Source: Lentisphaeria bacterium
Lineage (GTDB): Bacteria > Verrucomicrobiota > Lentisphaeria > JABSQK01 > JAWLHB01
Direction of reading: 5' to 3'
DNA: 64,000 bases
Assembly (NCBI GenBank): GCA_041690595.1
Contig: JAWLHB010000012.1
Span: 36,785 to 100,784, forward strand
The position numbers were made by a program, and so were the translations under genes. The notes beneath the pieces were generated by a model. It saw only the letters and a program-made list of their open reading frames with translations. It had not been told where the DNA came from and did not search any database. Positions 1,801 through 60,644 of the stretch are shown here, piece after piece (position 1 is the stretch's first letter; every line of letters starts with the position of its first letter).

Positions 1801-2086
1801 CCTCAGCCCAGGGACAGCCCGGGGACAGGTACATTCCCTCAGCCCGGGGAGACAGCCCAGGGACAGGAGACAGCCCGGGGACAGGTACTTCCCTCAGCCC
1901 GGGGACAGGTACTTCCCTCAGCCCGGGGACAGGTGCTTCCCTCAGCCCGGGGACAGGTGCTTCCCTCAGCCCGGGGACAGGTGCTTCCCTCAGCCCGGGG
2001 ACAGGTGCTTCCCTCAGCCCGGGGACAGGTGCTTCCCTCAGCCCGGGGACAGGTACTTCCCTCAGCCCGGGGACAGGTACTTCCCT
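1801..2086. repeat. Tandem 24-bp repeat array (unit cagcccggggacaggt[a/g]cttccct). It has 9 perfect copies at 1871-2086 in the order 2x 'gta', 5x 'gtg', 2x 'gta', plus about 3 degenerate leading copies
   Basis: Read directly from the sequence. Copies abut with no spacers. The array lies in the divergent intergenic region between the BatA-like gene and the IS200-like gene. Confidence 0.9.
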
Positions 2087-2250
2087 TGTTTGCTATATTC
2101 TTTCGGTGGGTATAGATGCGGCTCGCGGCAGCTCCTGCACCACTTCCGGCATGTTTAGTCAACTGCTTGCATATTTCGTCACTCGGCGCTTGACAACGTT
2201 AAATACGGAGTCAAGTTGATGTCCATCACTACAAACAAAGGGGTTTAAAG

Positions 2251-3189
2251 ATGAGAATGGCGCGGATCAAGCATCGAGGCGGCGGCTGCTACTACCATCT
2301 GACAAACCGAACGGCAGGTAGCGAGAAAGACCGGCCCTTTGGTAAGGTTGAGAAGAAGAAGTTCGAGAATCAGGTGCATTCCCTGAGCACGCTGTATTCG
2401 CTGCAGGTGGTAACTCTTTGCGTCATGTGCAATCATTTTCACCTCACACTGTTTGTTCCAGGCGAACCTCCGAGCCGGAAAGAAGCCGCCCGCCGCTACA
2501 ACAAATTCTACAAGGACAGGCACCCCATCACCGCCGACTCGCCCATCGCCGCCGAACTGGCGCCGCGCCTCAATGACATCAGTCACTTCATGCACGATCT
2601 GCAGCAGCGTTTCACGGTCTGGTTCAACAAGAGCCGCCCGATCCGGCGTCGCGGCGCGCTGTGGGCCGGCAGGTTCAAGAGCGTCATCCTCCAACGCGGC
2701 ATGACCCTGTGGAACGCCATCAAGTACATCATCCTTAACCCCGTGCGCGCGAAGATGGTCAACGATCCTGCCGACTATCGCTTCAGCGACTGGGGGCATT
2801 GGCATGAAAGTGGACGACATCCCTTCGAATCCAACTTCGTGACCCACGTCTGTCGCAGCCTTGGCCATCGCGCCGATGGCTGGGATGCCAAGCGGCTTCA
2901 GTCTGAGCTGCGCACCGACCTCGCCCGCACCATGGCTGCCGACGCCGATGCCAACGCGATTCAGGCTGCCTGCGAGAGCGGAAAGAAGCGTCCGGCGCCG
3001 ATCCTGCGCGCCGATCGCCGGAATCGCTGCTGGAGCGATGGCGCGATCATCGGCGATCGGCAATTCGTCCACGAGGTAGCTGGTGCCGTCTACGGCAGCG
3101 ATGCCATCAAGAAGAAACGCCTTGGAAGCGGGCGCCTGCCCGATTCCGGCGAGCTGCTCTACAGCTTCCGCAGGCTGCGCAAGGACTGA
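2251..3189 (+). CDS. IS200/IS605-family (COG1943, RAYT-like) HuH-Y1 transposase, long form (312 aa)
   Basis: HuH motif in CNHFHLTLFVP. GALWAGRFKSVILQ and WNAIKYIILNPVRAKMVND match the Y-I-x-x-N-P-V-x-A-x-hydrophobic catalytic-Tyr helix typical of IS200/RAYT transposases. A GGGG stretch lies 9 nt upstream of the ATG. Confidence 0.75.
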   Translation: MRMARIKHRGGGCYYHLTNRTAGSEKDRPFGKVEKKKFENQVHSLSTLYSLQVVTLCVMCNHFHLTLFVPGEPPSRKEAARRYNKFYKDRHPITADSPIAAELAPRLNDISHFMHDLQQRFTVWFNKSRPIRRRGALWAGRFKSVILQRGMTLWNAIKYIILNPVRAKMVNDPADYRFSDWGHWHESGRHPFESNFVTHVCRSLGHRADGWDAKRLQSELRTDLARTMAADADANAIQAACESGKKRPAPILRADRRNRCWSDGAIIGDRQFVHEVAGAVYGSDAIKKKRLGSGRLPDSGELLYSFRRLRKD

Positions 3190-3299
3190 CGCCCGCCAGC
3201 TGAGCGGGCAGGGAGGCACGGCAGAGCAGACGACTCTCCGGGGTTGGACGGGTCAATGCCTGCTGCGTGCCCGCAGGCCACGTAAGTGCCTGTCGGGGG

Positions 3300-3890
3300 A
3301 GGACGTTCCCGGATGGGGGCACTGCCCATGGTCGGTGCCTGGCCGGGTTCTGCCGGCCACGCCAATTGAGAACGAGGTCGTCATGTGTCCGACTTCTGTT
3401 GTTGAGTGAAGTAGCGTGGTCGGGTTGAGGCGCTCAGACGAGAGGCGAAGAAGTGCCTGTGCCCGTGTTGTGCTCAGACGAGAGGCGAAGAAGCACCTGA
3501 CCCCGTGTTGAGGCGCTCAGGCGAGGGGCGTTCCGGGGGTAGGCGAGGCGAGAAGTACTTGGCGCCGGATTGAGGCGACGGGCCGAGAATTGGTAGTGAC
3601 AAGTACCTGTCCCCGGATTGAGGCGGCGGGCCGAGAATTGGTGGTCACCGCTGCGTTGCCGGGGGCACCGCAGGTGCCACTCAGGCGAGTGGCGTTCCCA
3701 GGAGGAATGGGGCACTGCCGATGATCGATGCCTGGCCCCGTTCTGAAAGCTACGCCAGTTGAGGGGGCGACCGCATCATCTGTGCAACATCCGAGGACGC
3801 AGATTGCTTGATTCGCGTGGAAGCTACCGCTGCATTGCCGAGGCGCCGCAGGTGCCACTCAGGCGAGCGGCGTTCCCAGCATGGGAGCGG
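3300..3890. repeat. Non-coding block of imperfect direct repeats: pairs of ~80-bp (3300-3395 vs 3700-3790), ~50-bp and ~35-bp segments, several carrying the hairpin GGCACCgcaGGTGCC
   Basis: Repeated strings are visible (e.g. gctcagacgagaggcgaagaag... twice; ggattgaggcgRcgggccgagaattggt twice; cgctgcRttgccgRggcRccgcaggtgccactcaggcgagYggcgttccc twice). Only short low-complexity ORFs lie here. Confidence 0.7.
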
Positions 3891-3909
3891 CGATCGAGAC
3901 TGATCCTGA

Positions 3910-4377
3910 TCAATACTGATCCTGATCGAGGAACCTGACGATTTCGCGCTGCAGCTTCGCCTGCCGTTCCGCGATTCTGTCGGCTGGCGTCTCACGGTAG
4001 ATGTCCGTGATGTCACCGGCACCCTCCTGGATGCGCTGGCACAGCTCGCGGGCGGTCAGGACGTCGCCATCGCCGAGGCCGAGGCGTTCCGCCCAACGCT
4101 GATCGAGCAGCAGGTTGTACTCGCGTTTGGAGCCAGGGGCCTGTGGACGAAAGGAGGTGTCGATCGTGTCGTCGCACAGCCCGTCGATGCTGTGGCAGCA
4201 TGGCCGGCAGATGTCATCGGCACCAAACTCCATGCGGAGTTCCACATCGCGTTCGGCGAGCACAGCCTTGGTGACGCTGTGCACTGCGTGGCCGTAGGGA
4301 TGGGGTGGCGGTGCCTCGACACCATCCCCGAAAGCCGTGATGATGTCGACGAAGTGATGTGGCTTAATAGCGATCAT
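3910..4377 (-). CDS. Cys/His-rich small protein, DUF1284-like (putative Fe-S/metal-binding)
   Basis: Translation MIAIKPHHFVDIITAFGDG...ICRPCCHSIDGLCDD. The ATG at 4377 has a GGAGGAG Shine-Dalgarno just upstream. Track ORF 3910..4413 starts further upstream at a weaker start. Confidence 0.55.
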   Translation of the reverse strand: MIAIKPHHFVDIITAFGDGVEAPPPHPYGHAVHSVTKAVLAERDVELRMEFGADDICRPCCHSIDGLCDDTIDTSFRPQAPGSKREYNLLLDQRWAERLGLGDGDVLTARELCQRIQEGAGDITDIYRETPADRIAERQAKLQREIVRFLDQDQY

Positions 4378-5537: not shown

Positions 5538-8500
5538 TCAGTTATCCAGGTTCTTGTAGTAGTCGGAGACGATACCCCTGTAGTCCTCGTCGATGTCCTG
5601 CAAGCCCGTGTCGTCGCCGGCGCTTCCGCCGGATGCCTCGCTGCTGGAGACGCTCATTGGCAGAACAGCTCCCGAAGCAAGCTCTGTCTGCGTTTCCTGC
5701 AACTGCTTCATGACGCGCTGCTGCAGGCTGGCGTATTCCTTCTGATCCTTGTCCATGCGCTCGACGCGCCGCATATCCCGGGCCGCCTCTCCCAGCGGTT
5801 CGGTATTGTTCATGTAGAGGAGTCGTGCGGTGGCGTACATGGCTTCTGTTTCCTGGCGGAGCGCCTGATTTGCGGAGGGGGCCTGCATGTGCATGTCGCG
5901 GCGCGGGGCGTTGCCGAACATCCCGATGGTTTCAGATTCGCCGCCGAGCTTGCCACCGCCGGTGGCCCGCGCATCCAGAGTCGAATCCTCGGCCTCTTCC
6001 ACCTGCCCCTTCTGCAGGGGATCATTGGTCTTGCGCGCATGCGTTTCGCGTCCTTCCAACCCCTTCACGGTGTTTTCGACAAGCTCGCCAGTAGACTGCC
6101 CTTCGCGGCCCGCGCCACTGCGGCCGGTCATCTCGTTGTCATTCGGCTTGGTGTTGCCGGACTTCCCTTTGGCCGAAAAATTGGGCATCGGCCCGTCCAT
6201 CACGCCCCACCCCATTTCGGCATCCGCCATCATCTGGTTGCCGGTACTGTCCTGGGACTGCATATCGATATCGGCCGATTGATCGAGGAGGTCGCCAACG
6301 ATGTCTTCAAGCTCTTCCGGCAGATCGACGAGAGGCATGTCGGGAAATTCGGCGGCATCGAAGCTTTCGAGATCCCACTTGATATTGTCAGGAATGTCCG
6401 GAAGCCACATTTCGACATCCTCGACACGTTCCTTGGTGTTCTTGATCGCTTCGAGCAAGCCATCTTCCTTCTGCACGGCAATCTCGACGCTGGGCGCGTT
6501 CTCGCTGTTGGCTGCCTGCTCCACGTCCTCGTACACTTCGCGCATCTTGCTGTTGAGATCGTTGCTGACCGGGAGTTCCGGGAACTGGTAGAGATCCTGA
6601 GCCATCTTCTCAATCTTCTCCTGCCACTGCTTCTGCTCCTCGTCAAGCTTCGCCAGTTCCGCCCGCACCTTGTCATCGAGATTGCCCCGGCGGGTAAGAT
6701 CCTTAGTCACTTCCACAATCTCGTTCTGGCGCTTCTCCATGTCGGCAAGCTGCTCGGCAATGTCTCGCAACGTCATCGAGGCATCGGCTATGGACTCGCG
6801 GGCCTTCTCGACGCGCCACTTGTTCATGATCTTGAGCGCTTCCGTCAGCAGGCGCAGCGCCTCTTCCTCGGCCTGGATGCCGGCGGCCCAGTTGACCTGA
6901 CTCAGCTCGTCGGCCGCGGTGAGCATCTTCTCGTAGAGTCGGCCGCTGGTGAGCAGCACATGAACGTTGGCCAACTGCCGGGCAAAGCTGTCTTCGCTTT
7001 CCGCGTTGGCCATACGCTTGACGGCTTCGATGAAGAGAATCGCTTCGTCAGCCAGTTGCTCCTGGCGCCGCACCAGGAGAGCGACACCGTCCCCCTGCAG
7101 TTCGGCCTGCATACCGCTCTTCGTATCGGCCAGAAGCTCGCGCTGACGAGCGACCATGCGCTGCAGCTGCCCCAGAAGATCCGTCTTGTCCTTGTAGGAC
7201 TGCTCGTTGGCAAGGGCCGTGGGCAGCCCCGTCAGCACAGCCAGAATGCGCGCCTGGAGGGCGATGGCTTCTGCGAGAGGCGCCATGCGCTCCCGGTCCG
7301 GCGCCCGCGTCAAGGCATCCAAGGCCGCAACCGCCTGCTGCATCTCATTGGTCTCCAGTTCCCTGAGCGTGATCAGGAGATCCCCGAGGACCGCATCGTG
7401 CGTCAGGAGTTCAGCAGCCAGCCGGCGAATCTCAACCTGGGCCACCAGAAGAGGCGCCATGGCGGCAACGTCGACAGTGCTACTGCCGCCGGCAAGCTGA
7501 GTCTGCAGTTTGCGGCTGCCGGACAGATTCTCTTTCTGGAGTTGGATCAGGCGAGCAACGGAGCGTTCGCTTTCTGCCCGTTTGCCCTGGACGGAGCGAC
7601 GCTCTTCGTCCGGCAGCGGGATGACGATATCCATGAGCCGTGAAGCTCCCTGCCGTGCCTCGGCGGCAGGTCCGGCATCACGCGCCAGGAGGCGGAAACG
7701 CAGGCGGGAACCAGCTTTCGCCCCCAGCGCCGCCAGGTCGACTGCGAAATGGCCACGCATCTCCCGGCGAAGCTCGTCATTGCGCTCGACCGCAATCTCC
7801 TGATCGGCCCCATCCTTCTCCACGCGTACACAGAGGACAGACGCAACGCCGTACTCGTCGCGCGCCACGAAAGGCAAGGCGATGCGCTCGCCGGGCGCCG
7901 CGGTGATCTGGCGCAGGTCGGTGGCAAAGTCGACCGTCGGCCCGAGGTCGGGCAGGATGGTCAACGGCAGAGGAATGCGGGCATCGAGTCCCGCCGTCGA
8001 TACCAACCTCAACTGAAGTGGAGCGGTGCCCGGCACCGGGAAGGTGACACGAAAATCGGCGGCATCGGCCACGGCAGCAGCCTGAAGCTCGCGTCCATCC
8101 TGCAGCACGACGACCTGGCGAAGAGGCTGGGAGGACTTGCCGGTGAGCTGTACCTCCGCGCCCACGGGAATCCCCCCCTCCGGCTGCTCCGAGCTGAGCC
8201 TGCGTCGCGGCAGAGAGGTATAGGCAGGCGGTTGCACGTCCGCCGCCCAGTTCACCAGGGAAGGCGGACTCTGCACGCCGATTGTGAAGCGGGGGGAGCG
8301 GGCATCATTGGCAATGAACCAGTAGGTGGTGCTGTCGAAAAGCAGGGGAGTCTCGGCGGTGAAGCTCAGGGGCTCTCCGTCGACGGCAACGAGCATGATC
8401 TGCTTTGCCTCGCCACGCTCCGGTTGCACGACCAGCATCGGCTTGCGCGGCACTTTCCCTTCCAGGCGAACGCGAATGAGAGCCTTTTCTCCACGTGGGA

Positions 8501-60593: not shown

Positions 60594-60644
60594 GCACTGC
60601 TGACGGGGGACGGGGGACAGACCTTACTTCCTGGATTTCTTAAA

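Follow-up and report, generated by a model that had tools for sequence, protein, structure and literature searches.

A Tandem 24-nt Repeat Array and Its Inverted Copies Bracketing a RAYT-like HUH/Y1 Gene in a Lentisphaeria Bacterium

Organization of the Repeat Array and Its Inverted Copies

Why a perfect tandem repeat should lie directly upstream of a transposase-like gene, and whether the two are related in function, is the question raised by a locus of a Lentisphaeria bacterium (assembly GCA_041690595.1). The locus was analyzed within a 64,000-nt stretch of contig JAWLHB010000012.1 (positions 36,785 to 100,784 of the forward strand), referred to as the window, whose own coordinates are used throughout. 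As stated in a preliminary description of the locus, the array lies between two divergent genes; it occupies part of a 590-nt gap between a BatA/VWA gene, starting at 1660 on the minus strand, and a Y1_Tnp gene encoding a RAYT-like protein of the HUH/Y1 type, starting at 2251 on the plus strand. The interpretation favored here, to which a probability of about 0.6 is assigned, is that two inverted repeat clusters form a pair around this RAYT-like HUH/Y1 gene, in an arrangement of the TIRtron type, and that the array is the upstream one of the two, amplified in tandem. Sequence comparison also points to the 10-nt tag carried by its units, GGGGACAGGT, as a conserved cis element of this Y1 protein family.

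The array consists of nine perfect 24-nt units, CAGCCCGGGGACAGGT[A/G]CTTCCCT, which follow each other head to tail on the plus strand (1871-2086) and abut without spacers, setting them apart from a CRISPR array, as had been recognized from the beginning. Tandem Repeats Finder (TRF) returned a period of 24, 9.0 copies, and 98% matches, and no match to the unit is expected in the shuffled window. A single variable base, at unit position 17, is A,A,G,G,G,G,G,A,A in the successive units, and both the copy number and the order first described are confirmed. The start of the array had been placed at 1801 and needs to be redefined, as the perfect copies begin at 1871 and the longer span takes in four truncated or rearranged units (1804-1870). 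The unit head CAGCCCRGGGA, found 13 times against 0.17 expected occurrences, starts at 1804, 1815, 1840, and 1853, and thereafter every 24 nt from 1871; the decayed unit at 1815-1839 is almost full length, with one inserted base. The array is polar, the decayed units being distal and the perfect units proximal to the Y1 gene, which suggests recent amplification or homogenization. All 11 exact occurrences of GGGGACAGG in the window fall within this locus, and the exact 23-mer of the unit had no match in one genome-contig and one metagenome-contig collection. No Rfam family was found in the window locus or in 18 related loci, and a search for similar plasmid DNA found none.

Folding of the 24-nt units as single-stranded DNA was no better than that of shuffled sequences (z from -0.24 to +0.70), and a folding energy of 0.0 kcal/mol was obtained for the unit without its core. 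The early statement that the unit is not self-complementary is essentially right, with the addition that a 6-bp palindrome, CCCGGG, and a weak GGGGA/TTCCC stem are present. Neither GTAG nor GTGG was found in the unit, and with neither a GT[AG]G tag nor a significant hairpin it is not a classic repetitive extragenic palindromic (REP) sequence, again in line with the preliminary description.

Four reverse-complement copies of the array unit, not noted in the preliminary description, lie just 3' of the Y1 gene within 3432-3645. With up to two mismatches, the 15-nt core GGGGACAGGTRCTTC gave 13 matches in 64 kb against 0.24 expected, 10 of them on the plus strand in or beside the array and three on the minus strand just downstream of the Y1 gene. 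Nearly the whole 24-nt unit was recovered downstream in reverse complement by a repeat finder, which paired 1892-1914 with 3601-3623 (23 nt, 91%) and 1916-1939 with 3490-3513 (24 nt, 88%), and 16 nt are perfectly matched between the upstream and downstream inverted arms. The downstream copies are embedded in two pairs of longer tandem units (Table 1). The minus-strand cores of the 40-nt pair (3432-3511) are GGGCACAGGCACTTC and GGGGTCAGGTGCTTC, and the second 48-nt unit holds CCTCAATCCGGGGACAGGTACTT, which matches the left-hand unit at 16/16 nt and 21/23 nt. With the array upstream on the plus strand and its reverse-complement copies downstream on the minus strand, one and the same repeat forms inverted clusters on either side of the Y1 gene.

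The A and G variants are both found among the downstream inverted copies. The symmetric order of the variants in the array, for which no meaning could be demonstrated, is probably incidental. A block of five G units can be placed in five ways among nine, one of them symmetric, and the other arm already holds both variants, so that the order needs no special explanation.

Table 1. Coordinates of the features at the Y1 locus (window positions).
Feature	Position	Strand	Remark
Four decayed or truncated units	1804..1870	+	Array end farthest from the Y1 gene
Nine perfect units	1871..2086	+	Core GGGGACAGGT in each unit
Promoter-like site, GGGACA-18 nt-TATATT, TG extended -10	2070..2099	+	Consensus match only
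RAYT-like HUH/Y1 gene, 312 aa	2251..3189	+	HUH motif, catalytic Tyr, Pfam Y1_Tnp
Mosaic of further local direct repeats	3270..3890	.	Surrounds the inverted units; relation to the element uncertain
Two 40-nt tandem units, 90% alike	3432..3511	-	Array unit embedded in reverse complement
Two 48-nt tandem units, 88% alike	3550..3645	-	Likewise hold the reverse-complemented array unit

The Adjacent Y1 Protein and Its Promoter Context

The product of the Y1 gene matches Pfam Y1_Tnp and is an enzyme of RAYT fold with intact active-site motifs, in agreement with the IS200/RAYT-like label that it had first received. Its HUH motif is NHFH (H62/H64), and its tyrosine motif, of the Y...NP form, is KYIILNPVRA (Y159 and N163); these residues are invariant in 40 homologs, which for the catalytic HUH and Tyr speaks for nuclease chemistry having been kept. 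By sequence, the best relative in the PDB is E. coli TnpA_REP (4ER8), and the NCBIfam RAYT equivalog model REP_Tyr_transpos (NF047646) was matched at 52.7 bits, below its cut-off of 80. A C-terminal extension of about 130 residues is conserved, within which no Pfam or helix-turn-helix (HTH) match was found. Homologs numbered 932 at E <= 1e-3, and those in reference genomes were almost all from Victivallales, Kiritimatiellia, and Verrucomicrobiota.

The sole sigma-70-like site between 1600 and 4000 is the one formed by GGGACA and a TG-extended TATATT, whose -35 hexamer, GGGACA, is the core of the last array unit. An alternative -35 element, TTGACA, is present at 2190-2195.

Conservation of the Core Upstream of Homologous Y1 Genes

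Whether the unit contains anything shared by the relatives of this gene was approached through 85 homologous Y1 loci, in which the 8-mers of the 350 nt upstream were counted without bias. The top sense-strand 8-mers were AGGGACAG (23 loci) and GGGACAGG (19 loci), which are rare on the opposite strand and whose background of 0.017 per kb equals the chance level. The most enriched 8-mer is contained in the window unit in the same orientation, a coincidence with a chance of about 4e-4 for a 24-nt unit. A 21-nt position weight matrix, built from the upstream 8-mer sites and trained on A/T-rich genomes, identified 59 upstream sites on the sense strand in 41/85 loci, compared with about 0.9 expected. 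Downstream of the gene, it identified nine antisense sites in 7/85 loci (about 1.4 expected) and sense sites in three loci. The gene-nearest site lay 8-20 nt upstream of TTGAC in 16 of the 41 loci, versus 0-2 at control offsets. The core is therefore conserved family-wide, orientation-specific, and promoter-proximal in this Y1 gene family, and the association with IS200-like genes elsewhere, which the preliminary description had proposed to look for, was found at these 41 loci.

Most of the 41 loci carry one site (28 loci), with two sites in nine, three in three, and four in one. In L120, L053, L027, and L058, the Y1 gene is directly preceded by an independent tandem array with the same tag, and tandem copies of the core were also found in L011. 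In L120, five tandem TAACCGGGGACAGGTCAAT units are followed by 17 nt, TTGACA, and then the Y1 gene. The window array is the extreme of this recurrent theme, in which a promoter-proximal cis element is prone to tandem duplication. The layout of the window locus recurs in L082, where the gene is preceded by two sense copies and followed by three antisense copies in tandem, and extra cognate copies were located kilobases from the gene in L082, L030, L003, and L040.

L082, a contig of a Verrucomicrobiales metagenome-assembled genome (MAG; JAEUHI010000064.1), showed further features. A second Y1-like open reading frame (ORF; 3091-4026), which matches Pfam Y1_Tnp with its N-terminal part only (E 3e-10), immediately precedes the main Y1 gene and has the motif in front of it as well, and a module of more than 140 nt beginning with the motif occurs at both 6150 and 7550 (6150-6300 and 7550-7700). 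This region is a local cluster of left-end-like modules.

An alternative motif, AAAYCACATAATA, occupies the same position in Victivallales paralogs. In Haloferula sargassicola NBRC 104335 (L033, NZ_BAABRI010000004.1), eight tandem copies of the 15-nt CCACATCACAATATG, to which AAAYCACATAATA is related, occupy 2948-3068, immediately in front of a Y1 homolog's promoter (TTGACG). The shared position of AAAYCACATAATA and CCACATCACAATATG indicates that some members of the family have, in place of GGGACAGG, a motif of a second, CACA-type class. Among the Victivallales MAGs CAXXKX01 and CAXXVV01 (L009-L024, L029), one long-read MAG holds at least 12 Y1 paralogs, with 70-92% nucleotide identity, which is not like the near-identical copies of an insertion sequence (IS). 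Homology among these paralogs begins about 100-130 nt upstream of the start, takes in a TTGACA-17-TATATT promoter, and ends at the stop codon. In some loci (L043, L063, L054, L047, L035) the motif has the look of a hairpin loop; a comparison of cognate with permuted flanks gave p ~0.06, leaving a conserved hairpin unproven. The contig of the closest homolog (L007, 54% identity, Logan SRR17546866_5470) starts 17 nt upstream of the Y1 TTGACA box, where relatives carry the motif or array, which fits a break of the assembly within such repeats.

Metagenome Arrays Sharing the 10-nt Tag

A scan of metagenomes for three GGGGACAGGT tags spaced 6-30 nt apart matched at least 120 stretches, 80 of which were used for array statistics. 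In these 80 loci, TRF copy numbers ranged from 2 to 38, and 54 distinct unit families, with periods of 16-49 nt and a mode of 32-36, were left after removal of near-duplicates. The 54 families have only the 10-nt tag in common, positions beyond it being unconserved. A significant hairpin 3' of the tag was found in 10 of the 41 families with long enough units, against about two expected, and these families resemble the 'tag plus palindrome' organization of REPs. The loci span from 26% to above 58% G+C and adjoin unrelated housekeeping genes, and all-against-all BLASTP found no recurrent neighbor protein family beside them. No orientation preference relative to the flanking genes was seen, the 3' side facing a gene end in eight cases and a gene start in five, which speaks against promoter-specific dispersed arrays. 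A Y1 gene was detected by the family hidden Markov model in only 2 of the 80 loci; the tie of these arrays to Y1 enzymes comes from the shared tag.

In metagenome ODAI01, at least 11 contigs (L115, L119, L122, L134, L141, L142, L145, L146, L152, L154, L168) carry one 33-nt unit, ACCCACCGGGGACAGGTTCCTTGGGGCAAAAGT, several of them as adjacent inverted array pairs. The neighbors are unrelated housekeeping genes, including those for TetR, LacI, a histidine kinase, and a D-Ala-D-Ala carboxypeptidase, and the arrays look like a dispersed intragenomic family of a single organism, similar to bacterial interspersed mosaic elements (BIMEs). Many of the metagenome contigs are short and end inside the array. 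The longest array seen (L104, Ga0114957_1085198, 53-1198) contains about 38 copies of a 30-nt GGGGACAGGT-tagged unit and fills nearly the entire 1.2-kb contig.

Comparison with Known Systems

RAYT-like genes flanked by terminal inverted repeats (TIRs) instead of REPs have been described as 'TIRtrons' encoding 'TIRYTs'; the motif GGGGWSAS recurs in many of these TIRs, at a comparable distance from the gene, and TIRs may be single, dimeric, or clustered, with copies elsewhere in the genome reported in only some of the members (Di Nocera, De Gregorio & Rocco 2013, PMC3733652). TIRYTs were later equated with TnpA_Y1 subclass 2.1, that is, RAYT group 1 of Bertels et al. 2017, for which the consensus GGGG[AT][CG]A[CG] and C-terminal HTH-like domains were reported, and no REP-like structures were found near subclass 2.1 genes (Quentin et al. 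2018, PMC6006769). Group 1 is the largest RAYT group and lacks the repeat abundance of REPs (Bertels et al. 2017, PMC5581495). A literature search for tandem arrays of this tag, or for Y1-associated tandem repeats, gave nothing beyond Di Nocera 2013 and Quentin 2018.

The window locus has much in common with this arrangement. Its RAYT-like Y1 gene is flanked by inverted repeats of non-GTAG type, the GGGGWSAS-type motif GGGGACAG is present in every 24-nt unit at a similarly short distance from the gene, and the protein, which carries the Y---NP tyrosine motif of class 2 (Quentin 2018), is much longer than E. coli TnpA_REP. Since GGGGACAG fits GGGGWSAS exactly, the locus is best filed as a TIRtron-type arrangement. 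The differences lie in the strict head-to-tail 24-nt array, with nine perfect and four decayed units upstream and four copies downstream, in the conservation in most relatives of only the upstream, sense, promoter-proximal copy, and in the lack of dispersed copies in 64 kb. In addition, the protein subfamily is found mainly in the Planctomycetes-Verrucomicrobia-Chlamydiae (PVC) superphylum and has no detectable Bac_DnaA_C/HTH C-terminus. As the HTH reported for subclass 2.1 is absent from the window protein, membership of that subclass is not claimed; the locus is TIRtron-like in architecture and variant in composition, not a proven subclass 2.1 member. The TIRtron-type arrangement is known but barely characterized, and it appears here in an unusually expanded tandem form.

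The REP/BIME and RAYT systems of E. coli and Pseudomonas (REPtrons, REPIN-RAYT) likewise have a gene bracketed by inverted, tagged short repeats, and the same-tag clusters found elsewhere are dispersed beside unrelated genes, with about a quarter of the units combining tag and hairpin. However, the window tag is the 10-mer given above and not GT[AG]G, and its unit lacks a hairpin, whereas a REP is a 20-40-nt imperfect palindrome that forms one. The window units also stand in strict tandem and not in the inverted pairs of REPINs and BIMEs, the protein scores under the RAYT equivalog cut-off, and none of the high-copy dispersal of REPs, which number tens to hundreds per genome, was seen in the window.

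With IS200/IS605 elements (IS608, ISDra2), the locus shares the succession of recognition element, promoter, and transposase gene at the left side, and the gene is multi-copy in some genomes, as in the Victivallales MAG mentioned above. It differs from them in the tyrosine motif, Y...NP and not Y...Q, in a protein twice as long as TnpA (about 130-150 aa), in the lack of subterminal hairpins at the window locus, and in paralogs that are not nearly 100% identical and have no conserved right end. Plasmid iterons offer another likeness, being direct repeats of about 20 nt beside the gene of the presumed binder that overlap or abut its promoter, so that autoregulation by occupancy is possible. Unlike iterons, the window repeats have inverted copies on the far side of the gene and are associated with neither a replication function nor a Rep protein, the adjacent protein being of the HUH nuclease type and not a winged-helix initiator.

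Proposed Mechanism and Its Weaknesses

Under the TIRtron-type interpretation, the adjacent Y1 protein would recognize GGGGACAGGT and possibly nick and rejoin the tag on single-stranded DNA, by analogy with TnpA_REP acting on GTAG-tagged REPs. The array would have grown by unit-length duplication through replication slippage or unequal exchange or, alternatively, through Y1-catalyzed cleavage and joining between neighboring identical sites. Occupancy of the array, or of its proximal units, probably also tunes expression of the Y1 gene, since the tag lies just upstream of the -35 element in relatives and the last window unit overlaps the promoter-like site. Binding and cleavage of the repeat by the Y1 protein, the route of amplification, and autoregulation are all put forward here as inferences. 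Among the three options offered by the preliminary description, a binding-site array tied to the transposase-like protein fits best.

Several observations weigh against this interpretation. The link between protein and repeat is drawn from comparative data. Agreement between the window unit and the family motif ends at the 10-nt core: the A/T-rich 3' flank of the relatives is absent, and scores of the perfect units stay below 8 on the 21-nt matrix, which was trained on A/T-rich genomes. Characterized Y1 enzymes recognize hairpins, and the window unit has no significant one. A downstream inverted partner was found in only about 8% of the homologous loci and no conserved downstream end in the Victivallales paralogs, so that 'terminal inverted repeat' does not describe a general property of the subfamily. 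No dispersed copies of the unit were found outside the locus in the 64-kb window, the similarity to Bac_DnaA_C, HTH_23, and HTH_28 reported for subclass 2.1 was not detected in the window protein, and the scarcity of Y1 genes beside the metagenome arrays points in the same direction.

Alternative Explanations

The alternative that survives best, which we consider rather improbable, is that the array is purely cis-regulatory, with GGGGACAGGT serving as a double-stranded operator or activator site and without any cleavage or mobility. The binder would be the C-terminal region of the Y1 protein or a host factor, and the target the Y1 gene and perhaps the divergent BatA gene. Such a role would account for the fixed distance of the proximal motif from TTGAC in the relatives, for its almost constant placement on the sense strand, and for the overlap of the last window unit with the promoter-like site, and a motif without a significant hairpin suits recognition of duplex DNA. 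However, the four inverted copies 3' of the gene cannot act on the Y1 promoter, and arrays with the same tag occur in any type of intergenic region, beside unrelated genes and without preferred orientation. The invariant catalytic residues argue for nuclease chemistry, and the failure to detect an HTH domain in the Y1 protein also speaks against a role limited to binding.

A neutral slippage minisatellite, lying beside the Y1 gene by coincidence and with no functional relation to it, is strongly disfavored. Perfect, spacer-free, head-to-tail units with a block of one variant inside the other are typical of slippage or unequal exchange, and the lack of another copy in 64 kb and of the exact 23-mer in two large collections is what such an origin would lead one to expect. 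A plain expanded minisatellite, as first suggested, nevertheless leaves out of account that reverse-complement copies lie across the gene and that the core is conserved family-wide. The presence of the top upstream 8-mer of 85 homologs inside the unit, in the same orientation, and the independent arrays upstream of other Y1 genes are also difficult to reconcile with coincidence, and the measured background of the core, being at chance level, speaks against a compositional artifact.

The idea of a phase-variable spacer, in which the number of units would alter the spacing or phasing of the BatA and Y1 promoter elements and thereby switch expression, drew on the location of the array in the divergent intergenic region and on the tendency of perfect repeats to change in copy number. 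No evidence for it was obtained, and it appears very improbable, given that a 24-nt period is not that of a usual helical-phase switch, that the array does not separate the candidate -35 and -10 elements but precedes both, and that the downstream inverted copies would be left unexplained. A protein with an 8-residue repeat, such as that of ORF 1542-2219 with its SPGTG[TA]SL repeats, can be practically dismissed, because the ORFs that cross the array in all three plus frames and one minus frame are open automatically in a 24-nt unit without a stop codon, that particular ORF is antisense to the 5' end of the BatA gene, the homologous motif is elsewhere intergenic and beside promoter boxes, and most periods of the 54 unit families, which range over 16-49 nt, are not multiples of three.

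Possible Significance of the Tagged Arrays

Few domesticated transposases are as common in bacteria as RAYT-like Y1 proteins, and to our knowledge neither the DNA substrate nor the function of the REP-less RAYT-like branch is known. The TIRtron-type locus and the comparison with its relatives supply a concrete 10-nt candidate substrate, GGGGACAGGT. Its core stands in fixed orientation just upstream of Y1 promoters across many PVC members (Verrucomicrobiota, Lentisphaerota, Kiritimatiellia), and arrays with the same tag are widespread in metagenomes beside unrelated genes, which together make the relationship between enzyme and repeat directly testable with oligonucleotides. A broader and more tentative proposal, which we regard as possible but doubtful, is that GGGGACAGGT-tagged tandem arrays are the missing REP-equivalent repeat family of the domesticated Y1 branch resembling TIRYTs and RAYT group 1. 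These enzymes would then read a 10-nt linear tag and not a GTAG-footed hairpin, would be responsible in many bacterial phyla for the formation, spread, and resizing of head-to-tail arrays, and would use the copy beside their own promoter as an autoregulatory sensor of site occupancy. The significance of the locus would be higher if such arrays were indeed the REP-equivalent of a large enzyme branch. Tag arrays would also explain a class of intergenic tandem repeats that break assemblies in MAGs.

Other Features of the Window

A DUF1284 protein is encoded near the Y1 gene. Farther away, GACGGGGGACAGACCTTACTT (60602-60629) comes after a short GACGGGG tandem (TRF 60602-60618) and scores 10.1 on the family matrix, which is below the threshold and may be due to chance. 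The region downstream of the Y1 gene also contains the local repeat mosaic listed in Table 1, no part of which occurred elsewhere in the window. A module of about 60 nt is present at 3311-3370 and 3704-3763 (80% identical), and CTCAGGCGAGnGGCGTTCC occurs three times, at 3516, 3680, and 3858. Two further modules, at 3646-3701 and 3825-3879, both contain CCGGGGGCACCGCAGGTGCCACTCAG, which by eye resembles a diverged sense-strand copy of the array unit.
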